A stretch of DNA of 64,000 nt from an uncultured Gammaproteobacteria bacterium (GTDB lineage Bacteria; Patescibacteriota; Microgenomatia; Daviesbacterales; UBA10151): the NCBI GenBank assembly GCA_964649615.1, contig CAZYPW010000001.1, positions 33,557 through 97,556 of the forward strand, read 5' to 3'. The notes beneath the pieces were generated by a model. It was not told the DNA's origin and made no database searches. It saw nothing but the letters and a program-made list of their open reading frames with translations. The position numbers were made by a program, and so were the translations under genes. Below are positions 7,393-50,505 of the stretch, piece after piece (position 1 is the stretch's first letter; each line of letters starts with the position of its first letter).

Positions 7393-9174
7393 TTAAGGCG
7401 ATTTTCTTTTCCACTTAAGAGGATTCCAGGGTGAAGCACTTCGATCTATGAATGTTCCTATACCGGGTTTCGTAGGACCATATTCGAATCCTCCAGTGCC
7501 AGGGTTAAGATAGTATCCCTTCTCTCCAAAAATATTCTGTTTAAACATTCCCCCTTGGCCACGAATAGCACCTGCTCCTTGTTCATAGTATCCTCTACCA
7601 CCCCTGATACCTCCTGATACTTCCTGTCCAATTAATTGTCCTGCCTGGCCCATTTTACCAATAGCGCTGACAATTATATCCGGAATTTTAGGCAATGCCA
7701 TTAAAGCTCCAAAAGCCAGTAAAATCTTAATAAATCCTAAATCTAAACCTCCAAACAAAGGGAAAGCAGTACCCTCTACAATATTAATTTTATCTGCGGC
7801 ATATACCGCTGGGACAAAGCTACTTTCTTCCATCTGGTTTGATTGAGTTACTTTAAGGGGGCCACCATAATCCTGACCCATTAAAAAGGCTACGAAATAA
7901 AATACAGCTAAAACAGCAGGAAATACTAAGATATTAGCAAGCAGCTTCAGCATCCAGCCGGTAGCAATGCTCTGCCTGCCTGGTAAAGCAGCTGCTAAAA
8001 AATGAAAAGGGGCACTAATTGTTAGGAAAATAATTGTTAAATAACTAGCGAGTAAACGCAAAAGCAGTTTTAACATCTGATATATTAGGGCAAAGGTGGC
8101 GATAAAACTTAACATCAATCCTACCCATGTGGTAGGAAAAGTAGCCACTGTTACCCCAGCAACTAGATTTATTAAAGGACTGGCAATCAGCCCATAAGGA
8201 GGAGGGATAGCTCCTGACAAGGGACTGATAAGTTGAGCACTAATAAAACCTGCCAGCAGCCTGATATAAAATTGAGTTTCACCGTTCATTTTCTCTAGGA
8301 TAGCGCCTAAGGCTTTAGAGGCATCATCCCAGGTAATGATATTTAGGAAGGGGCTAAAAATACTCAACATACTCTCAACAGAGATATGTTGTACTAGGTT
8401 TGTTCTTTGGGGATCATCTAGCTCATTTTGAGCAGCAGCAAAGAAATAACCCACAGCATTTGTGCCTATAAAAGCCGTATCTGAGATAGCTGCTGCCATA
8501 AAGTAACTGAATGTGATAAGGATCAGACCAAGTACTAATCCTGGTAATGCAGCCTGTGCTGTGATTACAGTTTGAGGATTAATTCTATTTCTAAACATTA
8601 CCATTAACCCAATAACTACAAAGATAATCACCATAATTAAGTAAGCTATATTTCTTGACACTTCCCAAAGTCTCAATACTGGATCTAAAACCCTAGCTGC
8701 TGATCCTACTACTTGAGCATTAACGGGTTTTACTATGCCAAATCCCTTTCCCACATAAGCTATATAATTGACTGTTCTAACAGGAGGATTGGTATACAAA
8801 GCAGTAATTAAGGAAGTTGTTGAACCTAATACCCCTCCTGATAAATCAACTTGGGATAAAACCGGTACCCCGGAAACATAAGTTAAACAAGGCTGGCCAA
8901 TTACAGATTGGCCAATCCCTAAACAAGAAAAAGTATGAAACATATTATGGATTAAAAGATCAGTGTAGATGGGAGAGGTGGGGGAGATGGTAGATGGTAG
9001 ATGGTAGTTGGTAGTTGGTAGTGGAGAAGCAGAAGGGGTAGATGTCTGAGCATGGATAGGAGTAGCATAAAGCGTAAAAGTTAAAAGGCAAAAGGTAAAA
9101 GTCAAAAATGCAAGTAAAAAGTAAAAAGTTTTTAGAAATTTTGAATTTTGAATTGTAATTTTGACATTTGACAT
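7393..9174 (-). CDS. Polytopic membrane protein; VirB6/TrbL/CedA-like candidate channel component.
   Basis: N-terminal signal peptide, then a ~130-aa exported segment, at least 6 TM helices, and a Gly-rich C-terminal tail. It sits directly adjacent to the tandem pilin-like genes. Confidence 0.4.
   Translation of the reverse strand: MSNVKITIQNSKFLKTFYFLLAFLTFTFCLLTFTLYATPIHAQTSTPSASPLPTTNYHLPSTISPTSPIYTDLLIHNMFHTFSCLGIGQSVIGQPCLTYVSGVPVLSQVDLSGGVLGSTTSLITALYTNPPVRTVNYIAYVGKGFGIVKPVNAQVVGSAARVLDPVLRLWEVSRNIAYLIMVIIFVVIGLMVMFRNRINPQTVITAQAALPGLVLGLILITFSYFMAAAISDTAFIGTNAVGYFFAAAQNELDDPQRTNLVQHISVESMLSIFSPFLNIITWDDASKALGAILEKMNGETQFYIRLLAGFISAQLISPLSGAIPPPYGLIASPLINLVAGVTVATFPTTWVGLMLSFIATFALIYQMLKLLLRLLASYLTIIFLTISAPFHFLAAALPGRQSIATGWMLKLLANILVFPAVLAVFYFVAFLMGQDYGGPLKVTQSNQMEESSFVPAVYAADKINIVEGTAFPLFGGLDLGFIKILLAFGALMALPKIPDIIVSAIGKMGQAGQLIGQEVSGGIRGGRGYYEQGAGAIRGQGGMFKQNIFGEKGYYLNPGTGGFEYGPTKPGIGTFIDRSASPWNPLKWKRKSP
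9089..9163. repeat. Left arm of a ~75-nt inverted repeat; encodes KITIQNSKFLKTFYFLLAFLTF in the 593-aa membrane protein.
   Basis: Its reverse complement is nearly identical to 13915-13990. Confidence 0.85.
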
Positions 9175-9229: not shown

Positions 9230-9538
9230 TTAAGGTTTGCACCAATCAGTGCCACCAAAGTTACATAAAATTCCAATATTAAAAGAAGTTACCTCAACTC
9301 CTGTGGCTATTTGTATGAGCTGTAGTATCAGCCACCCTACTGCCATAAAAACTATGCCTAAGAGTGCCCAGGTAATGGTCATTTTGGCAGCTTCCAAGTT
9401 TTTAGGGTCTCCACCTGACCTTAAATATTTATATCCTGCAAAAGTAATCATCACAAACATAGTAATAATCCCCAAGCCTACAATTGAGGAAATGATGCTA
9501 TTTAAAATATCTTGTATTTGTTGTAATCCAGCAGGCAT
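9230..9538 (-). CDS. VirB2/TrbC-like (T4SS-type) pilin paralog.
   Basis: Small two-TM protein with the conserved loop AGYKYLRSGGDPKNLEAAKMTITWALLG, which is shared with its neighbours. Confidence 0.5.
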   Translation of the reverse strand: MPAGLQQIQDILNSIISSIVGLGIITMFVMITFAGYKYLRSGGDPKNLEAAKMTITWALLGIVFMAVGWLILQLIQIATGVEVTSFNIGILCNFGGTDWCKP

Positions 9539-9589
9539 ATATCTAAAGTAACACTATATCAAATACGATGGTATATATAAATTAATTAA

Positions 9590-9964
9590 TTACGGAGCGG
9601 TAGGTATGGTAATCTTTGTTAGGCCACCGCTAAATCCTAAGAATTCAGCTGCCACATTTGCCAAAGCAAAAGCCACTGCCAAAACTGCCAGCCCAATTAG
9701 GGCATTAACTATTTTACTTCTGGCTTTGCCAACAGCTTCTTTATCTCCGCCAGAAGTAATCCAATCAAATGCTCCCCATACCAGATAGATTAATACTAAA
9801 AGTAAGGCCACAGCAAAAGCCAGTTGTATAACATTACCTATAAATACCCCTATATCTTTATAGCCTTGGGTAGGGGCTTGAATATTAAGATCAAAAACAG
9901 CATAAGCACTGGCTGCTGCAATAAAATAAGTTACAGCAGAAGAAACAATGGCTAATTTTTTCAT
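9590..9964 (-). CDS. VirB2/TrbC-like pilin paralog.
   Basis: Signal peptide, then TM, then the motif LVWGAFDWITSGGDKEAVGKARSKIVNALIGL, then a second TM. Confidence 0.55.
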   Translation of the reverse strand: MKKLAIVSSAVTYFIAAASAYAVFDLNIQAPTQGYKDIGVFIGNVIQLAFAVALLLVLIYLVWGAFDWITSGGDKEAVGKARSKIVNALIGLAVLAVAFALANVAAEFLGFSGGLTKITIPTAP

Positions 9965-10017
9965 TACTTATTTAAGTATATCTCTATTAAAAATATCTTG
10001 TCAAGTCCCGGTTAATT

Positions 10018-10455
10018 CTATCTGCAATCTGCTGCTTCTTCACCAGGGAAACAAATTCGTTTACAACTTTTAGAAGATGAATCATATGAGTATCCAGGTG
10101 AACAAGAGTTTGTGGAGAAGAAGCTAAAGCCTGTAAATTTCCCAAAAACTGCAATTATGGCAAAAGCTGCTGCAAATAAAAGTATGCCGATCATGGCATG
10201 GATGATCTTTTGTTGGGCTTGTTGGACTTTTTCCTTTTGCCCTTCAGAAGTAATCCAATCAAATGCTCCCCAAAGGATCATAAAAAGAAAAAATACTGCT
10301 GCTACAGCATAGATCAGCCCTATCAAATTACTGAAAAATTTGCTTATTCCTGTTGCCCCACTTAGATTTCCTTGTGTGAAAGGATCTAATTCTGGTGGCG
10401 GTTTTATGGCACCAAATATATCTTTAAAATCTGCAGCCAGTTTCATATTAGCCAA
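10018..10455 (-). CDS. VirB2/TrbC-like pilin paralog with a Cys-rich C-terminal tail.
   Basis: Carries the motif ILWGAFDWITSEGQKEKVQQAQQKIIHAMIGIL. The C-terminus is ...CSPGYSYDSSSKSCKRICFPGEEAADCR. Confidence 0.55.
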   Translation of the reverse strand: MANMKLAADFKDIFGAIKPPPELDPFTQGNLSGATGISKFFSNLIGLIYAVAAVFFLFMILWGAFDWITSEGQKEKVQQAQQKIIHAMIGILLFAAAFAIIAVFGKFTGFSFFSTNSCSPGYSYDSSSKSCKRICFPGEEAADCR

Positions 10456-10843
10456 TTAATCTTAACCCAGTTATACCAAACAATCTAGCAAGTAAAAATT
10501 GTAAAATCAAAAATGAGAGCATTAACAATATAAAGCCAATTAAAGAATGGATAATCATTTGTTTGGCGCTTTCAATATCTTCTTTATTTGCCCCAGCCTT
10601 CATGTATTTAAAAGCTGCTATTAGAAAATAAATCACCACCAATACTGTAGCTATTGAGAAGATAGCAGGAACCAGCCTTGTTGTCCCCTCGCCTAAAGTG
10701 GTAATATCCCTAAAACCAAAATCTTTACCCAAATCTATTGGATCTGGAGCTTGTGCAGAAGCATAAGGAGTGTAAAGTGTAAAAGTTAAAGTGTAAAGTG
10801 CTATTATAGTTTTTACTTTTAAGTTTTTACTTTTAAGTTTCAT
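10448..10843 (-). CDS. VirB2/TrbC-like pilin paralog.
   Basis: Signal peptide followed by ...LIAAFKYMKAGANKEDIESAKQMIIHSLIGF, with the same two-TM architecture. Confidence 0.5.
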   Translation of the reverse strand: MKLKSKNLKVKTIIALYTLTFTLYTPYASAQAPDPIDLGKDFGFRDITTLGEGTTRLVPAIFSIATVLVVIYFLIAAFKYMKAGANKEDIESAKQMIIHSLIGFILLMLSFLILQFLLARLFGITGLRLIG

Positions 10844-11179
10844 TTAAAATGGTGTTTGCCCCCCTGTTTTGACAAAAATCTCTGTGGCAAACCTGGTGAT
10901 AAAATAAGCCAAAAAGATCACCATTAAGCCTACCAAAGCCCAGGTAATTCTGGACCTGGCTTTGGCTAAATCTTCTTTTTTGCCTCCTGCTAAGATATAT
11001 TGGTATGCTCCCCAGACCAGGTAGAAAAAAGTTAGAAAAAGCATGATATAAATGGTGATATTAACTAAAACAGATACAAAACTGCTAAGATTGATAAATT
11101 CTGGTTTTAAACCAGAAGGAGTAGGGATAGGCTGGGTTTGTCCTGGTAAGGTTAGTGCTAATAAAGATTTAAGATTCAT
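10844..11179 (-). CDS. VirB2/TrbC-like pilin paralog.
   Basis: Carries ...YLVWGAYQYILAGGKKEDLAKARSRITWALVGL. Confidence 0.5.
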   Translation of the reverse strand: MNLKSLLALTLPGQTQPIPTPSGLKPEFINLSSFVSVLVNITIYIMLFLTFFYLVWGAYQYILAGGKKEDLAKARSRITWALVGLMVIFLAYFITRFATEIFVKTGGQTPF

Positions 11180-11234
11180 GATTCAATTATAGCTTAAAGC
11201 TTAGAACGTAAAGTGTAAAGTTACAGTTTAAAAC

Positions 11235-11603
11235 TTAAAGTTTCCTTTTCCCTTTTAAAGTAAGTAAGCTTGCTCCTAAAATATTTGCAAGTTCTTTCGT
11301 TTCTGTTAGTAAAATATTAACTTCGTTTTTATCAGTATTGGTTCCATCTCGTAATATTCCAAGCCAGTACTTAGTTTCATTAGCACTCTTAAGGGCAATA
11401 GCATAAAAATTAATGAAATCTTTCTTGCTTGATGCAGCTTGTGCCTCAATAATATTGGCTCCTATAGAGGTAGCAGCTCTTAATAGCTGATCAGATATTA
11501 CCCAGAAAATTCTTTCATTAGGTAACTTAGTCACAAATTGCACTATCCTAATGGAAAAAGTATATGCCCGGTACTTTAGTTGTTCCTTGTTATTGTTATT
11601 CAC
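11235..11603 (-). CDS. Four-helix-bundle protein (23S rRNA intervening-sequence protein family).
   Basis: YRAYTFSIRIVQFVTKLP...ISDQLLRAATSIGANIIEAQAASSKKDFINFYAIALKSANETKYWL is the characteristic sequence of this family. Confidence 0.7.
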   Translation of the reverse strand: MNNNNKEQLKYRAYTFSIRIVQFVTKLPNERIFWVISDQLLRAATSIGANIIEAQAASSKKDFINFYAIALKSANETKYWLGILRDGTNTDKNEVNILLTETKELANILGASLLTLKGKRKL

Positions 11604-11666
11604 AGATTTAACTTTTTAGTTGTAGTTTTGCGCTTTAAGTTTTACGTTTTACACTTAAATCCCTAT

Positions 11667-12815
11667 TTATTTACAGCTATCAAATCCTGGTATGCACAGT
11701 ATATCAACCCCAATAATTTTTAAAAGTAAGGTAGCAAAGATTACAAACAAAAGCCCAATGATAGCTGAGGTAAACCTATCCCTGCCACCCTCCAATCTCT
11801 CTGGGTTACCAGCAGATGAGATCATCTGAAATGCACCTACAAGCATCAGTAAAAAGGCAAATCCACCAGAGATAGCTACCAGAAATGTTAAAAGATCTTT
11901 GATAAAACTAATCGGGTTGGTGTGGATACAACCAATAGCTGTGGCAATTGCTGGATCTTCATCAGTTCCACACGGTTTTGCTCCTGCTAGGGTACATTTA
12001 CTGGGGTCGGTACAGTGAGGGGTTATAGGTGCGCCAGGAACCACAGGAGCAATAGAGGCAGAAGGGTTTGGTGTAGACGGAGTTGTGGCTGTGGCACTAA
12101 TTTGGATTGGCCAAAAACACTGATGAAGCGGAGCAAGCTTATAAATTCGCAGATTATATTTATACCCAATCTCTCTTGATAAAGTTAAGTTTGTAAAAGC
12201 ACCCTGACCTGTGCTGCCGGTCTCAGTAGAAGCCAAATCAGGATCTCTTCGGCTACTTACATTAAAATCTTGAATTTTATATTCAGTGTTAGCCAATCCT
12301 AAGAATTTGATATCAAACGGAGTATTTGGTTGAATTGTACTTGGGGGTGGAGGAGATAAACCTATTGTACATCCTCCGGTAGCCCCTATCTGGTAGGAAA
12401 TTTGCGAGCAGAAATCTTGATAGTCACCACTTGCATTAGGTTGCCAATACAATTCTCCTGTGAATTTTCCAGCTTCAATAAGAGAGTTTGTTCTAAAACC
12501 CAATTCACTCCCCCTAATAGTTAAAGAAAATTTATTACCTGAAACAGTTACAGATTGTGTATCATAATCTCCAAGATGAGCGTACCACGCACTGAAGTGT
12601 AAACTAACTGATTTACCATTTAAGAGTGCTAACGTAGCTGGATCATTGATTGTAAAATTAAAAGTTAAATCAGTTGTACCTTCTGGAAAATATTTAGGAT
12701 CATAAGTAATGTTAACAGTGGGTGCAGCGCAACTATCTGAAGCTTGCACAACTGGTATGAATGTGTTGAAGAGAGTCAAAAGACCAATAATTCCAAAGAT
12801 AAAAAGTCTGGACAT
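11667..12815 (-). CDS. Secreted 382-aa protein with a large N-terminal extracellular domain and a C-terminal pilin-like two-TM domain; candidate tip or adhesin pilin.
   Basis: Signal peptide. The C-terminal 70 aa (LLMLVGAFQMISSAGNPERLEGGRDRFTSAIIGLLFV) is homologous to the small pilin paralogs. Confidence 0.5.
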   Translation of the reverse strand: MSRLFIFGIIGLLTLFNTFIPVVQASDSCAAPTVNITYDPKYFPEGTTDLTFNFTINDPATLALLNGKSVSLHFSAWYAHLGDYDTQSVTVSGNKFSLTIRGSELGFRTNSLIEAGKFTGELYWQPNASGDYQDFCSQISYQIGATGGCTIGLSPPPPSTIQPNTPFDIKFLGLANTEYKIQDFNVSSRRDPDLASTETGSTGQGAFTNLTLSREIGYKYNLRIYKLAPLHQCFWPIQISATATTPSTPNPSASIAPVVPGAPITPHCTDPSKCTLAGAKPCGTDEDPAIATAIGCIHTNPISFIKDLLTFLVAISGGFAFLLMLVGAFQMISSAGNPERLEGGRDRFTSAIIGLLFVIFATLLLKIIGVDILCIPGFDSCK

Positions 12816-23029: not shown

Positions 23030-24796
23030 TTATTTTCCAGAGCTCGTTTGTGGAGTAGCTTGGGGAGTATTTTGTTGAGGTTTTTCAGGAATAAAAAAGC
23101 CCATCTTTCGTTTTTCCTCTCTAATAACGCCTAACTTTTTCGCAGTTGCCAACATTTCCTCAGTACTTACGGGTGCCCACTCTAAACCTTCCAATTCGGC
23201 CATAGTTTTTTCTTCGAGGGTTAAATTGACAAGATTAGCAAGGTCAGCCCCACTCATTCCTTCTGTTGCTTGACCAATTTGTGCAAAATCAATTCCTTCC
23301 GAGAACAGCTCACCAGATGCGGTAGCTGCTTTCTTCGCTTTCTCCATGTGAACTTTGAGGATAGCCTGCCTGCCTTCAGTATTAGGTAATCCCACTTGAA
23401 TTAGTTTATCAATTCTTCCAGGTCGTTTAAGTGCAGGATCAATATCTTGTGGTCTATTGGTTGCAGCGATTATAGTGACATTGGGATTTGCTCTCATGCC
23501 ATCCATATTTTGCAGAAGGGTAGCAACGACTTTTCGTGTTGTTTCGTGAGCATCTTCACGAGATGGAGCAAGGGAATCCAATTCATCAAAAAATAAAACT
23601 ACCCTACCCCCTTTTTTAACTGCATCATTGGCTAAGTCGAATACTTTTTGCATCAATCTTTCTGATTCACCATACCATTTTGTTCCAATGTCCGCAGCCG
23701 ATATTTCCAAAAATGCTGCATTGGCTTCTGCTGCCACAGCTTTCGCAATTAAAGTTTTTCCGGTTCCAGGTGGACCGTAAAACAAAATACCCTTTGGCCT
23801 TTTAACACCCCTCTTTTCAAACATTTCCGGGTGGTTGATTGCTAAAACCAGCCTTTTTGCTTCAGCAACTGCTGCATCTTGTCCGGCAATTTCATCAAAC
23901 GATGATGATTCTCGAACCACTTGGGCTTCAACTAAATGTATCGGGCTCTCTGTTTCCGTGCTTGCTACTTGCGTAAGAGCATCCTGATTAAGAATAGGTG
24001 GTCTGAATGTTATAGTTCTATCTTTTGGAGGCTCAACACCTGCTTCGTCATAAATGATTCCAGTAACTTCTTCATAAACTCTTGCATACTGCCGAAGATA
24101 GGAGATGAATTCTTGCTCTTTATCATAAGCAGCAGATGCACCTGTTTCATCACCGAGAGCTAACCTTCGAGGAGCAGCACGTAATGAAATTAGCTCTTCT
24201 GTTAAACCTCTTTCTAATTTAGGTAAGTCATACTTTTCCGCATAACCTGGTTCTGCGGGGTTTCTTTGACGATCTGCTTCCATTTGTTTTCGAATATGTG
24301 CCTCTTCTGCTTCACGACTGCCAAAACTCAAACCTAGCTCATATTGTTGCCCTTCACGAGAGAAAACCAATGAATGAATTGGTACACCTGAAATTGAGGG
24401 TTTTTGCTCCTGTCGAGTTGTGAACCCCTTCATTTCAAGCATTTTTTGAAGTGTCGTAATTCTCTCTGGCCCGTAGTATCCATAATCTGGTCTTTGACCA
24501 ACATCTGCCGCAAAGTGATACCAACTCTCAAAACTGTACTCATTTCCCTCTTGAGCACCCCAACTCCATAAGTCTGAATTGGTCGTTTCAATCAAAGTGT
24601 CCCCGATGTTATTATTATGAAGCTGCGCAAGATTTCTTGACCCTTTGCCTAGATAAACAGCCAACTTATGAATAATATCTGGTTGATAAACCTCAACTTT
24701 TATTCCTTTTGGCCTGCCTTCTGGACTTGGTGGAGTAAATTCTGGTGGTTTAACACCATCTGGCACTGCACCTGGTATCGGTTCTCCTGGATTCAT
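23030..24796 (-). CDS. AAA+ ATPase (classical AAA, CDC48/FtsH-like) with a ~300-aa N-terminal domain of unknown function. Its GC content is higher than its surroundings.
   Basis: Walker A GPPGTGKT, Walker B VLFFDELD, second region of homology TIIAATNRPQDIDPALKRPGRID. Confidence 0.8.
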   Translation of the reverse strand: MNPGEPIPGAVPDGVKPPEFTPPSPEGRPKGIKVEVYQPDIIHKLAVYLGKGSRNLAQLHNNNIGDTLIETTNSDLWSWGAQEGNEYSFESWYHFAADVGQRPDYGYYGPERITTLQKMLEMKGFTTRQEQKPSISGVPIHSLVFSREGQQYELGLSFGSREAEEAHIRKQMEADRQRNPAEPGYAEKYDLPKLERGLTEELISLRAAPRRLALGDETGASAAYDKEQEFISYLRQYARVYEEVTGIIYDEAGVEPPKDRTITFRPPILNQDALTQVASTETESPIHLVEAQVVRESSSFDEIAGQDAAVAEAKRLVLAINHPEMFEKRGVKRPKGILFYGPPGTGKTLIAKAVAAEANAAFLEISAADIGTKWYGESERLMQKVFDLANDAVKKGGRVVLFFDELDSLAPSREDAHETTRKVVATLLQNMDGMRANPNVTIIAATNRPQDIDPALKRPGRIDKLIQVGLPNTEGRQAILKVHMEKAKKAATASGELFSEGIDFAQIGQATEGMSGADLANLVNLTLEEKTMAELEGLEWAPVSTEEMLATAKKLGVIREEKRKMGFFIPEKPQQNTPQATPQTSSGK

Positions 24797-32891: not shown

Positions 32892-34085
32892 TTACTTTTC
32901 ATCTTCGGCAACCCCTTCCGCTTTGTCCTCTACTTCCTGATCTATAAGTATATAGAGCTTTTTATTGCCTTGAACTACATAATCTATCTTCCTTAATTCT
33001 AGAAGCTCTCTTGCGGCGTTTTTGACTGTCGTAGACCCATACTTACCAGTTGGTGTTAATTTTTGGATTATTTCTGTTTGGCTCTGAATACCTGATTCTA
33101 AAAGAGATAAGATATCCTCTTTAGCCTGATCAACTTTTTCTACCTCAGACTCAAGGAAATCTAAAAACTTGAAGCCTGTATCGCCATCTGTAAAAGTGGG
33201 AAATTTAACCAAAAAGGATTCTATCGGCTTATCTGATCTTAAAGCGGCCTGGGTGATTTTGAGTGTTAGATCATCTTTTCTTTCAACGATTAAAAGGCAA
33301 TCTAGCATGGCCAAGATGTCACTTGAGCCTCTTAACTTATCTCCAGCTTCCCTCTTAAAAAATCCTTCCTTTCCATGGTGATGAATGAATATTATGCTGA
33401 CACCCAACTCAAGCAATATCTTAAATCTATATTGAACTTCGGCAATTACCTGTGAGCTATTCTCTTCCCCCTTAAAAATGCGTCTAAAACTGTCAACGAT
33501 GATTACCTTTATATTTTTATCTTGAATAATTTTGATAACTTCATTCATAAATCTATCTGTGTCTAGAAATAATTTGGTATCCGTACAGAAATAAATGGGT
33601 AATGTTTGATTATCAGTAAGTAGTTTAATCCTCTCTTGAATCAGTTTTTGAGGGTCTTCTTTACTGATAAACAAAACTGCGCTTTGTTGAGTTTCAAATT
33701 CATCCAAAAACTTTGCTCCTAATGCTAAACAGATCGCCAAATAGAGTGCCCAGAAACTCTTACCAACTTTTGGTTTTCCAGATATACAGGTAATTCCGTT
33801 GTCTGGTACTAAACGATCAACGATCCATTTATTGGGAGGGAAATCTTTTTGCCTAAGTTCCTCTAGAGAAACTACATCCAGGGTGGGAGTATTATTGGTC
33901 AATGGGTCATTACTATATATACTCTGACTTGTTGACTGGGACGGATCAGCTTCAACAGGTAGCTGGGCAGAACCATTTGTTGAATTAGATGTAGGTTGGT
34001 CTTCTTTCTCCTGCTCTGATAAATAGTGACTTAGTTCGTCAATTTCTTTATTACTAAGTTGTTCCTCATCCATATCAGCCTCCAT
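32892..34085 (-). CDS. AAA_25/RecA-like (RepA/DnaB-like) replication ATPase with an acidic N-terminal region.
   Basis: ISGKPKVGKSFWALYLAICLALG...VIIVDSF...SIIFIHHHGKEG. Confidence 0.6.
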   Translation of the reverse strand: MEADMDEEQLSNKEIDELSHYLSEQEKEDQPTSNSTNGSAQLPVEADPSQSTSQSIYSNDPLTNNTPTLDVVSLEELRQKDFPPNKWIVDRLVPDNGITCISGKPKVGKSFWALYLAICLALGAKFLDEFETQQSAVLFISKEDPQKLIQERIKLLTDNQTLPIYFCTDTKLFLDTDRFMNEVIKIIQDKNIKVIIVDSFRRIFKGEENSSQVIAEVQYRFKILLELGVSIIFIHHHGKEGFFKREAGDKLRGSSDILAMLDCLLIVERKDDLTLKITQAALRSDKPIESFLVKFPTFTDGDTGFKFLDFLESEVEKVDQAKEDILSLLESGIQSQTEIIQKLTPTGKYGSTTVKNAARELLELRKIDYVVQGNKKLYILIDQEVEDKAEGVAEDEK

Positions 34086-45255: not shown

Positions 45256-45929
45256 CCATCAAAGCGATCATATCTGATATTTATTTCTTCTATTCCTGAT
45301 TCAATTAACATTAAAGCCACAGCATTTACAAAACTATGTGATCCAGCCAGATAATAAATAGTATTAGGTATTAAGTATTTAGTATTAAGGGAATTTAAGC
45401 GGCCGTTTTGGCTGGAATTGTAATAGATAATAGTTAAGTTTGGTAGATTACTTTTCCATCCCTCTAGCTCTTCTTTAAAAAGAAAGTTATTATCTGAATT
45501 AGAATAAATTAGAGTTATGGAAGTTTGTAACTCATTATCAGCTACATACTTAATAATTGATCTGAAAGGAGTAATGCCCACTCCTCCTGCTATAAATACT
45601 GCATTCTCTGTTTCATCTAAAATAAATGTTCCAGCAGGATGCGAAGATTCTATTTTATCTCCTACCTGTAATTTTTCTACAAATTTTTTAAAAGGGCTGA
45701 TTCCTTTTTTGGGAGTAACCATCAAAAAATCCTCAGTTGGGGAGGAAGAGATAGTGAAAGCTCTGGTATCTCCACTAGGATCTTTTACTGGCAGTTTTAT
45801 ATCTAAATATTGCCCAGCATAAAAATGGAAACCCTGCCTGCCGGCAGGCAGATCTTGAGGTCTTTCCAAAATTAAACAAAGATACTTATCAAAGTATTTT
45901 TTAATATCTTTAATTTTTAAGAGCATCAT
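45246..45929 (-). CDS. FNR-family FAD/NAD(P)-binding oxidoreductase.
   Basis: RAFTISSSP (RxYS-type FAD motif) and AGGVGITPFRS. Confidence 0.7.
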   Translation of the reverse strand: MMLLKIKDIKKYFDKYLCLILERPQDLPAGRQGFHFYAGQYLDIKLPVKDPSGDTRAFTISSSPTEDFLMVTPKKGISPFKKFVEKLQVGDKIESSHPAGTFILDETENAVFIAGGVGITPFRSIIKYVADNELQTSITLIYSNSDNNFLFKEELEGWKSNLPNLTIIYYNSSQNGRLNSLNTKYLIPNTIYYLAGSHSFVNAVALMLIESGIEEINIRYDRFDGYL

Positions 45930-45990
45930 GCTTGGAGTATATTACCAATCCACTTCTCAGGACAAGTCTGTGTGTGAGATAATACTTAAT

Positions 45991-46302
45991 ATGAGTGGCC
46001 CTGTCCCAAAAGAAATTGGTATTGTTACTGAGGTTGATCAACAAGAAGAAGATGTTCATCGAAAGCTTGAAGAACCTTTAGGTCAGTTAGGCCATAAGAA
46101 TGTTTCTACTAAACCAGTCGGCCAGGGACTAATCAGAATAGAAGGCTTAAAAGATGTAGCAAGCTATGCAGGTACTAGTTGGGAGGAAGCCACAGAAGGA
46201 TCAAATATGTCAACAGGTGATAGAGCAACAGATAACAGTAATCCAATTAGTTTAGCACAAGAAAGATTTAAAAGAATGAGACCTAAAAAGGAAGCAGCTT
46301 AG
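45991..46302 (+). CDS. Hypothetical hydrophilic protein; it ends 3 nt before the ATPase gene.
   Basis: ORF only. The start is taken at the internal Met to avoid overlap with the divergent gene. Confidence 0.3.
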   Translation: MSGPVPKEIGIVTEVDQQEEDVHRKLEEPLGQLGHKNVSTKPVGQGLIRIEGLKDVASYAGTSWEEATEGSNMSTGDRATDNSNPISLAQERFKRMRPKKEAA

Positions 46303-46305
46303 TTT

Positions 46306-48651
46306 ATGGAAGTAACTTTACAAACCAGTAGCCCAAATTATTTAAGTTTAATTGTAGCAGTGATAGGAGCTCTAGCGCTATTGATGGTTTTAGTGGGATT
46401 TTGGTTTTATGTTAAAAAATATGTGATTGGTTGGATTAAATATAGGGACAGGGAAAAATCCTCCTTACAGTTTGTAGTTTTACAAATTAAAGTACCCAGG
46501 GGCAATGAAGTAAAAATTGATGCTGCAGAACAGCTTTTTGGCACCTTTGCTTCTTTAAGAAAGTCTGGAGGGATGTTTTCTTCTTTGCAAGCCCAGCCTC
46601 ATTTATCTTTTGAAATAGTTGCTACCCATGAATCAATTAAATTTTTTGTCTCCTGCCATAAATCTCATAGGGATTTGTTAGAAAAACAAATCCATGGAGC
46701 ATATCCTGATGCAGAGATCAAAGAAGTGCCTGAGTACAATATATTTTCAGAAACTGGCAAGACTGCTTATGCTCAACTTAAGCTCAAAAATGCAGACTAT
46801 TTTCCTATTAAAACCTTTAGGGATTTGCCAACAGACCCTTTGTCTTCTTTAACCTCTGGCTTAGCTAAGATGCAGCTGGGAGAAGGGGCAGCAGTCCAGT
46901 TGATTATTTCTCCAGCTGGCAATAGTTGGAAAGATAAAGGCAAAGCTTTTGCTAAAAAGGAAAAAGAACCAGGTACAGAAAAAAGCCCTAAAGCCCCTCC
47001 TGATGCCAAACAGCTGGAAGCAGTGGAAGGAAAGATTACCAGGGCTGGTTTTAATACTGTTGTCAGGATTGTCACTTCCTCAACATCTGAGGAATCTGCT
47101 AAAGCCCATTTAACTAATATTAAGTCTGCTTTTGAGCAGTTCTCTGGCCCATATAATGGTTTCTCAGGAGCCAAGGTTTATTCTGAGAAAGGTTTTTTGA
47201 CTGATTTTATTTACAGGTATTTGCCTAAGTTTTCTCCCACCCCAGTTTTAACAGCAGATGAGCTGTCATCTATTTTTCATTTTCCTAATAAATCTATAGA
47301 AACTCCTTATATCAACTGGCTTTCTTCTAAAAGGGCCCCAGCACCAGAAAAAGTGCCTACAGAAGGGTTGTATTTGGGAAGGTCTATCTTTAGGGGAGTG
47401 GAGAGGCCAGTCTTTCTGTCTGAGGATGATAGGAGAAGGCATATGTATGTAATTGGAAGGACTGGAACTGGCAAGACTGAATTTTTGAAAACCATGATGT
47501 TGCAAGATATTGTAGCGGGAAAGGGTTTATGTTTTATTGATCCTCATGGTGATGCAGCAGAAGAGCTGTTGCAATTAATACCACCTTCCCGGGCAGAAGA
47601 TGTGATTTATTTTGATCCCTCAGATATGGAAAGGCCTTTTGGTTTAAACATGCTGGAGGCTTATACTGAGGAACAAAAACACTTTGTGGTAGCCTCCATT
47701 ATTGGTTTGATGTATAAATTGTTTGATCCTAATAAAACTGGAATTATTGGGCCCAGGTTTGAGCATGGAGTTAGAAATGCTATGTTAACTGCCATGAGCA
47801 AGCCTGGTACCACTTTTGTGGAAGTGGTTAGAATCATGACAGATGCTGCCTTTGTGCAAGAGTTATTGCCCTTAGTCCAAGATCCTGTGGTTAGAAGGTA
47901 CTGGACAGACCAGATTGCCCAAACGTCAGACTTTCATAAATCAGAAGTGTTGGATTATACAGTTTCCAAGTTTGGCAGGTTTGTGACTAATAAAATGATG
48001 AGAAATATTATTGGCCAATCCCAATCCTCTTTTGATCTAAGAAAAGTGATGGATGAGGGAAAAATATTAATCATTAATTTATCTAAAGGTAAGATTGGTG
48101 AGGAAAATTCTAACTTTTTAGGATTAATACTGGTGCCAAAGATTTTGGCTGCTGCTATGAGCAGGTCTAATATCCCGGAGGACCAAAGGAAAGATTTTTA
48201 TTTGTATGTTGATGAGTTTCAAAATTTTGCCACAGATACTTTTGCCGATATCTTATCTGAAGCCCGAAAATACAAACTTAATTTGATTGTTGCCAATCAA
48301 TTTATTGGCCAAATTGGGGAGGATTTAAAAAATGCTGTTTTTGGAAATGTTGGTACATTAGTAGGATTTAGGGTTGGGGTAACTGATGCTAATTATTTGC
48401 AGCATGAATTTTCACCTATTTTTTCAGAAGCAGATTTAGTGAATGTAGAATCTCCTCATGCTTATATTAAAACTATAGTTAAAGGTGAACCTGTGCCCCC
48501 ATTTTCGCTAGATACCACCAAAGATATGGTCAAATGGAGATCGATGTTAAATCCTCAAGTGGGCCAGGCTATCAGAGAATTATCCAGATTAAAATTTGGC
48601 AGGGATGTGGCTCAAGTTGAAGCAGCAGTGGCTTCCAGAGCCAAGCTGTAA
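46306..48651 (+). CDS. T4SS-type P-loop ATPase of the VirB4/VirD4/HerA (FtsK-HerA) clade, with an N-terminal TM anchor.
   Basis: N-terminal TM LSLIVAVIGALALLMVLVGFWFYV. Walker A VIGRTGTGKTEF, then CFIDPHGD, Walker B LYVDEFQNF, and ARKYKLNLIVANQFIGQI. Confidence 0.6.
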   Translation: MEVTLQTSSPNYLSLIVAVIGALALLMVLVGFWFYVKKYVIGWIKYRDREKSSLQFVVLQIKVPRGNEVKIDAAEQLFGTFASLRKSGGMFSSLQAQPHLSFEIVATHESIKFFVSCHKSHRDLLEKQIHGAYPDAEIKEVPEYNIFSETGKTAYAQLKLKNADYFPIKTFRDLPTDPLSSLTSGLAKMQLGEGAAVQLIISPAGNSWKDKGKAFAKKEKEPGTEKSPKAPPDAKQLEAVEGKITRAGFNTVVRIVTSSTSEESAKAHLTNIKSAFEQFSGPYNGFSGAKVYSEKGFLTDFIYRYLPKFSPTPVLTADELSSIFHFPNKSIETPYINWLSSKRAPAPEKVPTEGLYLGRSIFRGVERPVFLSEDDRRRHMYVIGRTGTGKTEFLKTMMLQDIVAGKGLCFIDPHGDAAEELLQLIPPSRAEDVIYFDPSDMERPFGLNMLEAYTEEQKHFVVASIIGLMYKLFDPNKTGIIGPRFEHGVRNAMLTAMSKPGTTFVEVVRIMTDAAFVQELLPLVQDPVVRRYWTDQIAQTSDFHKSEVLDYTVSKFGRFVTNKMMRNIIGQSQSSFDLRKVMDEGKILIINLSKGKIGEENSNFLGLILVPKILAAAMSRSNIPEDQRKDFYLYVDEFQNFATDTFADILSEARKYKLNLIVANQFIGQIGEDLKNAVFGNVGTLVGFRVGVTDANYLQHEFSPIFSEADLVNVESPHAYIKTIVKGEPVPPFSLDTTKDMVKWRSMLNPQVGQAIRELSRLKFGRDVAQVEAAVASRAKL

Positions 48652-48658
48652 TCCTTTT

Positions 48659-48976
48659 ATGTCATTCCGAGTGAAACGAGGAATCTCTAGATTAAGAAGC
48701 TACTTTGTATATATCTTAGCCAGTAAAACAGGCACATTGTATATTGGTGTAACTAATAATTTAGAAAAAAGAGTTTATGAACACAAAAATAAATTAATTC
48801 CAGGATTTACAGCAAAGTATAATATTGATCGTTTAATGTATTATCAGGAATTTAATGATATAGAAGAGGCAATAGAGATGGAAAAGAAAATAAAGGGTTG
48901 GAGTAGAGAAAAGAAGATAAATCTTATTAAGACTATAAATCCTCACACTAAAGATTTAGCTGATAATTTAACCTAA
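48659..48976 (+). CDS. GIY-YIG nuclease-family protein (UPF0213-like), copy 1.
   Basis: YFVYILASKTGTLYIGVTNNLEKRVYEHKN...GWSREKK. Confidence 0.7.
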   Translation: MSFRVKRGISRLRSYFVYILASKTGTLYIGVTNNLEKRVYEHKNKLIPGFTAKYNIDRLMYYQEFNDIEEAIEMEKKIKGWSREKKINLIKTINPHTKDLADNLT

Positions 48977-49118: not shown

Positions 49119-49189
49119 AGGCCCGTCGTATAATGGTAATACCTGATTCTTATACAATCAAGACGAGGGTTCAATTCCTTCCGGGCCTA
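49119..49189 (+). tRNA. tRNA-Ile (anticodon UAU).
   Basis: Acceptor AGGCCCG/CGGGCCT, D-arm GTAT-AATGGTA-ATAC, anticodon stem TGATT/AATCA with loop CTTATAC, T-loop TTCAATT. Confidence 0.65.
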
Positions 49190-49208
49190 CATAATTCTGG
49201 TCCGCCCA

Positions 49209-49641: not shown

Positions 49642-50505
49642 TTAAAGCTCTTCCAGTTTAACTTTTCCTTCAGAAGGTTGGTTTTGGACAAATTGGAGAT
49701 AGCGTTCTGTGGTGGATAATCTTTTATGTCCGGCCAGCTTGGAGACCATGGTCATAGGGACTCCTGATTGCAATTGATGTGCTACCCAGGTATGCCTTAA
49801 ATCATTTACTTTGGCTTCTTTAATGCCTGCTAACCTAAAGTATCTATCAATAGCTGTCCTAATATTTCTTATTAAAAGCGGCCTGCCTGTTTTAGTGATA
49901 AATAAAGAATGGGATGGGCTTTTTGGCCTGATCCCCAAATACTTAGCTATTGCATCTGCAGCTGGTTTATTTAAAGGAATATCCCTTTCTCTGGTGTCTT
50001 CAAATGGGGGAACATGAAGTGAACCCATCTCTAAATTAACATCCTCAACTCTAAGTCTTGCCAACTCACCAATCCTAATTCCTGTTTGAAGTAAAAGCTC
50101 AATTACTGCAATCATCCTTAAATCTGCTTTAGCTGCATCTCTTAAGGCCCTATATTCCAGTTTAGTTAAGATCCTAGGAGGCTTATTTTCAAATTTAGGA
50201 TGGGAAAGTTTACTGGCAGGATCATCTGAGATTAAACTAGATGCTTTTAAGAATTTAAAGAAAGTTTTAGTAGAGTTAGTTTTTCTGGAAATAGATTTTG
50301 GGGTATAATTTTGTTTGGCTAATCCATCCATGAAAGCCTGCAGATCTTCTGTTTGGGTCTCTTTAGGATCTGTTTTTGATAAGCCTTCCAGGTAAAATAC
50401 CAGTTGATCAATATCTTTGCTATAAGCTAAGATAGTAGCAGAGGCTCGAGATCTGCCTTTTAAATGTCCTATAAATTGTTGATGGGCATCACGTAAAGTA
50501 ACCAT
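49642..50505 (-). CDS. Tyrosine site-specific recombinase (XerC/XerD-like).
   Basis: C-terminal RHTWVAHQLQSGVPMTMVSKLAGHKRLSTTERYLQ with the catalytic R...H..R...Y residues. Confidence 0.85.
   Translation of the reverse strand: MVTLRDAHQQFIGHLKGRSRASATILAYSKDIDQLVFYLEGLSKTDPKETQTEDLQAFMDGLAKQNYTPKSISRKTNSTKTFFKFLKASSLISDDPASKLSHPKFENKPPRILTKLEYRALRDAAKADLRMIAVIELLLQTGIRIGELARLRVEDVNLEMGSLHVPPFEDTRERDIPLNKPAADAIAKYLGIRPKSPSHSLFITKTGRPLLIRNIRTAIDRYFRLAGIKEAKVNDLRHTWVAHQLQSGVPMTMVSKLAGHKRLSTTERYLQFVQNQPSEGKVKLEEL

Follow-up and report, generated by a model that had tools for sequence, protein, structure and literature searches.

Organisation of the locus

The 64-kb stretch of DNA analysed here (the window) is chromosomal and belongs to Candidatus Daviesbacteria (Patescibacteria/CPR). 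It carries a gene for a 781-aa ATPase that an earlier note on this sequence had described as a protein of the FtsK-HerA clade with a single transmembrane helix, a domain of ~350 aa and a small coupled ORF upstream; that description of the gene holds, with the domain resized to ~290 aa. The features of the locus are as follows.

45928-46302, +, small hydrophilic ORF, 124 aa as called mechanically, its stop 3 nt before the ATPase ATG
45954..45983, +, promoter-like site TTCTCA-18 nt-GATAAT with a TG extended -10 (consensus scan), ending 7 nt before ATG 45991
45991..46302, +, probable true extent of the small ORF, 103 aa, MSGPVP...
46288..46294, +, Shine-Dalgarno-like AAGGAAG, 11 nt 5' of the ATPase ATG and within the 3' end of the small ORF
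46306..48651, +, ATPase gene, DUF8128 / T4CP-type, ATG start
46342..46398, +, single N-terminal transmembrane helix, residues 13-31 (hydropathy scan)
46468..47325, +, DUF8128 domain, residues ~55-340, with an alpha/beta fold like that of the VirB4 N-terminal domain
47338..48525, +, RecA-like ATPase domain of the VirB4/VirD4 (FtsK-HerA) clade, residues ~345-740
47455..47478, +, Walker A GRTGTGKT, residues 384-391
residues 409-416, +, CFIDPHGD motif
47668..48054, +, all-alpha insertion between Walker A and Walker B, residues ~455-583
48196..48219, +, Walker B FYLYVDEF, residues 631-638
48262..48312, +, RK...Q motif ARKYKLNLIVANQFIGQ (ARKYKLNLIVANQFIGQI, residues 653-670)

All the signature motifs quoted in the earlier note are present, and 75 homologues with 41-84% identity to the window protein keep the key residues without exception: G384, G387, G389 and K390 in Walker A; D636, E637 and F638 in Walker B, which aligns with LFIDEL of TrwB and whose D636/E637 pair lies within LYVDEFQNF (residues 633-641); and R654, K655, Q665 and Q669 in the RK...Q motif (residues 653-669), which aligns with RKAGLRVVAGLQSTSQ of TrwB. 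The all-alpha insertion occupies the same place as the all-alpha domain of type IV coupling proteins (T4CPs) or the helical bundle of VirB4. The hydrophobic segment is directly followed by a basic stretch, KKYVIGWIKYRDREK, and an AF2 model renders residues 12-53 as one unbroken helix; by the positive-inside rule this order would place the N terminus outside and everything beyond the helix in the cytoplasm. The domain that follows has a confidently predicted fold (pLDDT 94). Fused to the ATPase, it places the protein in the Patescibacteria DUF8128 (PF26449) family, an assignment taken from the precomputed annotation of P0001, a database protein 100% identical to ours, and of all 120 closest homologues.

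Translation of the small upstream ORF probably begins at ATG 45991, for which the promoter-like site may serve as promoter; a similar TGAGATAAT stands immediately before the small-ORF ATG in one relative (L001). That the Shine-Dalgarno-like site falls within the final part of the small ORF suggests translational coupling of the two genes. Local scans returned no Pfam or NCBIfam match for the small ORF, nor did such scans assign a family to the upstream partners in other lineages. Among the 82 relatives' loci having upstream sequence, 54 show a same-strand ORF of <260 aa at <130 nt upstream of the ATPase (greedy ORF set). These ORFs are tightly coupled, fast-evolving and largely low-complexity: the ORF at this position in one relative from Daviesbacteria shares 33% identity across 60 aa (E 4e-5), against 84% for the ATPase of that relative. 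The three class-level partner types (Microgenomates, Saccharibacteria and Parcubacteria) have no detectable mutual homology (hhalign probability <1%), so that what the partners appear to share is position and general character, and we do not claim a single family. Small partner proteins encoded near T4CPs recur elsewhere, CagZ, TraM and IcmSW being examples (as in the 8dol entry title).

Comparison with known motors

Profile comparisons, which the earlier note had proposed for choosing between VirB4, VirD4/TraG and HerA relatives, favoured T4CP-type models. The window ATPase passes PF10412 (TrwB_AAD_bind; 23.5 bits against a cut-off of 20.5), and its best profile matches are to T4CP models, SXT_TraD (8e-16) and TrbC (8e-11); relatives also match PF02534 (T4SS-DNA_transf) and PF12696, and homologues carry PF10412 together with PF01935. 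The individual NCBIfam T4CP subfamilies were all missed (SXT_TraD, 57.6 against 366 bits; conj_TOL_TraD, 35.3 against 647; TrbC, 41.1 against 800; CD1115, 33.9 against 250). The generic central-domain model DUF87 (PF01935) was passed narrowly (24.6 against 23.2), PF01580 (FtsK_SpoIIIE) scored 18.9 bits, under its cut-off of 24, and neither a HAS barrel nor FtsK alpha/beta/gamma domains with the corresponding profile, as in HerA/FtsK translocases, were found. When the family profile was run against PDB sequences, it retrieved TrwB (1.3e-7) and DotL (3.3e-5), with HerA only at 7e-3. A best match to an FtsK/HerA-family ATPase outside type IV secretion systems (T4SSs) was thus not found.

Structure searches with the window ATPase returned VirB4, TrwB, Cagbeta and DotL, the best Foldseek E-values going to full-length TrwK/VirB4, and its N-terminal domain has a VirB4-type fold rather than a HAS barrel. 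That ranking would suit an ATPase that assembles or energises the system as a second VirB4 and does not receive substrates, a membrane-tethered VirB4 paralogue that scores better with T4CP profiles, but we regard this as improbable. The VirB4 Pfam models (PF03135 CagE_TrbE_VirB, PF12846 AAA_10 and PF11130 TraC_F_IV) gave no match at E <= 1, the Mycoplasma VirB4 model of NCBIfam (VirB4_plasma) reached 16.5 of the 590 bits required, and the family profile that found TrwB and DotL in PDB sequences found no VirB4 chain. Unlike VirB4/TrwK/TraC, the window ATPase has a transmembrane helix of its own.

With T4CPs of the TrwB (R388)/VirD4/TraD/DotL/Cagbeta type it shares a membrane anchor, an FtsK/HerA-clade ATPase domain, Walker A/B, the RK...Q motif and the all-alpha insertion, at only 16-18% identity. 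Canonical T4CPs have two transmembrane helices and no VirB4-like N-domain, whereas the window protein has one helix and the extra 290-aa domain. Together, these comparisons support the earlier placement in the VirB4/VirD4 clade and, by profiles, would group the ATPase half with coupling proteins.

A tblastn search gave 762 plasmid records; the 30 matches listed with annotation have T4CP-type or generic labels, VirB4 not being among them. Beyond the PDB, the distribution of the N-terminal fold was surveyed with a tblastn search of plasmids, which gave the Bacillus match described below. In conjugation clusters of actinobacteria and Bacillus, the coupling protein encoded next to a Replic_Relax relaxase has the same full-length architecture. 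On the Embleya sp. plasmid NZ_CP108778, WP_331738717.1 (812 aa) has the same layout of single transmembrane helix and basic stretch, DUF8128-like domain and T4CP ATPase, and hhalign aligns 707 columns of it with the window protein, DUF8128 region included (probability 100, E 2e-58). Its cluster reads TrbL/VirB6-like, PrgI, VirB4-like, T4CP, Replic_Relax, NlpC/P60. On the B. subtilis plasmid NZ_OX419581, the N-terminal part of WP_144625398.1 (a 913-aa 'DUF87 domain' protein) matches the window N-domain, with a tblastn identity of 28.6% over 76% of the query; unlike the window ATPase this protein lacks an N-terminal hydrophobic segment, and it directly precedes a Replic_Relax gene in a Tcp-like cluster. 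The position beside the relaxase, with a separate bona fide VirB4 present, is that of a T4CP and argues further against the VirB4 paralogue. Whereas the Embleya and Bacillus homologues lie inside complete conjugation clusters with VirB4, PrgI or TcpE, and relaxase, no such gene is found near the window ATPase, whose companion is a small ORF.

Gene context in the window and in relatives

Elsewhere in the window, the following genes bear on the interpretation.

7393-9174, 593-aa polytopic protein beside the pilin array
9230-12815, -, six PF18895 T4SS_pilin genes, ~33.5 kb from the ATPase gene
23030-24796, AAA protein with Walker A
32892-34085, AAA_25 protein with Walker A
48596-48976, GIY-YIG gene just downstream of the ATPase
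49119-49190, tRNA-Ile gene downstream of the ATPase
49642-50505, tyrosine recombinase downstream of the ATPase

The ATPase gene is unlinked from the pilin locus, as had been noted, and no VirB4, VirB3, VirB6 or relaxase homologue, or any other linked secretion gene, adjoins it in the window. No Pfam match supports the 593-aa polytopic protein as VirB6, and the Embleya TrbL-like protein, used as a query, found no match in the window or in the relatives' loci. The same picture extends to the relatives: VirB4/PrgI lies within 10 kb of the ATPase in 1 of the 82 loci and pilin in 1-2, and a relaxase in none. The window protein combines the FtsK/HerA domain with Walker A/B, profile match and all-alpha insertion of a T4CP with a lack of linkage to T4SS and relaxase or substrate genes, here and in the 82 loci. 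The label 'orphan' names no peculiarity of the window, such isolation being the rule for the whole phylum.

The earlier note had also called this ATPase the only candidate motor for the pilin system. That is correct within the 64 kb, where a Walker A motif occurs in just two more ORFs of >=150 aa, and the Pfam domains of these two do not suggest a secretion ATPase. It does not hold further afield: VirB4 occurs in 2,417 of 3,035 Patescibacteria genomes (80%; PMC12102498) and is presumably encoded elsewhere in the source genome.

Nor did the suggested parallel to CedB and DNA import fare well. A Ced-like or competence-associated import motor working with the pilin array would draw on the natural competence of Patescibacteria and on the NCBIfam match to CedB (NF041017; 2e-10), with CedD weaker. 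That match, however, amounts to 40 bits against an equivalog cut-off of 700 and covers residues 331-421, the P-loop region, only. The earlier note's check for relatives' genes beside a pilin array came out negative: co-occurrence with pilin genes, whose absence the note had named among its refuting signs, was all but missing from the 82 loci. The competence genes comEC, comF and dprA are dispensable in Southlakia epibionticum (S. epibionticum), in which the likely counterpart discussed below is essential. We consider an import role very unlikely.

The tRNA-Ile, tyrosine recombinase and GIY-YIG genes just downstream might instead mark an integrated element, conjugative or mobilisable, with the ATPase as its coupling protein, a reading to which we give hardly any weight. 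Gene order is conserved in other Daviesbacteria and Xer and DivIC also lie downstream in other lineages; the recombinase keeps 78-82% identity from species to species, as a core Xer does; GC content is 0.39 at the locus against 0.32-0.41 across the window; there is no relaxase or VirB4 nearby; and the family tree follows taxonomy. Synteny, normal GC and vertical phylogeny largely rule this reading out.

A large, vertically inherited chromosomal family

We found at least 7,936 homologues of the window ATPase, and an exhaustive search gave 6,018 clusters (50% identity) at E <= 1e-30, numbers that speak against a chance observation. A neighbour-joining tree of the family tracks class-level taxonomy. 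Between Daviesbacteria species the ATPase is 81% identical, compared with 91% for RpoD, 78% for Xer and 71% each for DnaG and TrxB in the same pair. The order TrxB-SodN-SodX-FNR-small ORF-ATPase...Xer-DivIC is kept in other Daviesbacteria, and Xer and DivIC also follow the ATPase in several other main-clade lineages; synteny otherwise varies by lineage, with Xer in 21, DivIC in 14, DnaX in 10 and GyrB in 9 of the 82 loci, and no Xer/DivIC neighbourhood was found around the Saccharibacteria and Parcubacteria members. The window gene is an ordinary member of a very large chromosomal family that is inherited vertically and evolves slowly, and differs in no respect from the Patescibacteria DUF8128 proteins and VirD4-like T4CP homologues.

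The family as T4CP homologues that almost never lie beside virB4 is already in the literature: it is included among the 5,713 VirD4-like T4CP homologues reported in Patescibacteria (Quinonero-Coronel et al. 2025; PMC12102498), 148 of which are near virB4. The same survey counted T4CP homologues in 2,918 of the 3,035 genomes, so some genomes may have the ATPase without a T4SS, although this comparison of 96% with 80% for VirB4 is blurred by MAG incompleteness and by the pooling of two paralogues. A full-text literature search for DUF8128 and a literature search for SEML1_0142 (see below) returned nothing. Against the searchable literature, the VirB4-type fold of the N-domain, the conserved small upstream ORF and the separation of a main clade that is essential from a paralogue that is non-essential and lies next to a sigma factor seem to be new.

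A probable counterpart, essential in S. epibionticum

The likely counterpart of the window ATPase in S. epibionticum is SEML1_0142, matched by synteny, gene sizes and the tree and not by its sequence; a search seeded with a Saccharibacteria member placed no named Southlakia/Nanosynbacter protein among its best 120 matches, and the orthology therefore stays synteny-based. In published Tn-seq data SEML1_0142 was called ES/ES/ES, with an insertion depletion resembling that of virB4 (SEML1_0008), and in SEML1_0141, the small gene upstream of it, no insertions were recovered at T0-T2. By T0 SEML1_0142 was already scored as essential (class I); the T4SS genes fall into class II. The T4SS cluster of this species had been reported without a coupling protein and relaxase, and a later census pointed to the unlinked T4CP homologue as dispensable. 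It is the paralogue SEML1_0293 that matches the 'non-essential t4cp' of the literature, which suggests that two paralogues were conflated.

These data bear on the main alternative, that of an exapted housekeeping motor: the ATPase and its partner would now perform an essential membrane task independent of T4SS, for example the translocation of nucleic acid or protein in connection with replication, division or envelope biogenesis. The near-complete lack of linkage to T4SS genes across 82 loci, the wider occurrence of T4CP-type homologues than of VirB4, the class I call beside class II T4SS genes, and the housekeeping neighbours (Xer/DivIC, DnaX and GyrB, each in particular lineages) all count against a T4SS role and for such a motor, as does a conservation that is very high, comparable to that of Xer and above that of DnaG; exaptation was also raised by the authors of PMC12102498. 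Yet the neighbours differ among classes, with no single functional link kept. The insertion depletion of SEML1_0142 is quantitatively like that of virB4, and retention of a VirB4-type N-domain is more easily explained by ongoing docking to T4SS membrane parts. We therefore judge exaptation to be rather unlikely, if a serious contender. One version of it, an FtsK substitute beside Xer/DivIC, was rejected as a general explanation: Xer/DivIC are absent from the Saccharibacteria and Parcubacteria neighbourhoods, and S. epibionticum already has a canonical FtsK with a gamma domain.

A coupling protein acting in trans?

The reading we put forward, at about even confidence, is that the gene is the core Patescibacteria version of a monoderm-type T4CP, a motor by which DNA or proteins are fed to the secretion machine, acting in trans with a dispersed T4SS. 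Its ancestor would have been a coupling protein beside Replic_Relax relaxases in conjugation clusters of Firmicutes, Actinobacteria and, probably, haloarchaea; in Patescibacteria it would have become a vertically inherited chromosomal gene, cut loose from the other T4SS genes and co-transcribed with a small, fast-evolving partner that seems largely low-complexity or disordered. By analogy with TrwB and VirB4 the ATPase presumably forms a hexamer. It would recruit or unfold substrates at the expense of ATP and hand them over to the T4SS (VirB4, PrgI/VirB3, a VirB6-like protein and VirB2-like pilins), the VirB4-like N-domain possibly serving as the docking module for the VirB3/VirB8/VirB4 platform. 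The small upstream protein may be an adaptor or regulator, comparable to CagZ, TraM, PcfF or IcmSW. As no relaxase accompanies the gene, its substrates would more likely be proteins than relaxase-piloted DNA.

More tentatively, we propose as a joint statement that ATPase and partner form an essential two-gene module across Patescibacteria, whose family is a surviving intermediate of VirB4 and VirD4 and whose role is either T4SS coupling or independent of T4SS.

Patescibacteria account for a sizeable part of bacterial diversity, and in the one genetically tractable species a T4SS is reportedly essential for life on the host. If the match to SEML1_0142 holds, it offers a concrete candidate for the route by which substrates reach this T4SS. 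Should the T4SS reading be true, the module would be the long-missing coupling and energising component of the essential epibiosis T4SS. Its VirB4-like N-domain would allow it to take up a docking site of VirB4 type, with the fast-evolving partner as an adaptor or substrate specific to lineage or host. As regards the window, what is gained is above all a clean annotation: the gene is the standard Patescibacteria copy and not an oddity of this genome. A VirB4-type N-domain on a T4CP-type ATPase is also relevant to the divergence of the two T4SS ATPases and, if either reading is true, the combination would be an architectural intermediate of VirB4 and VirD4.

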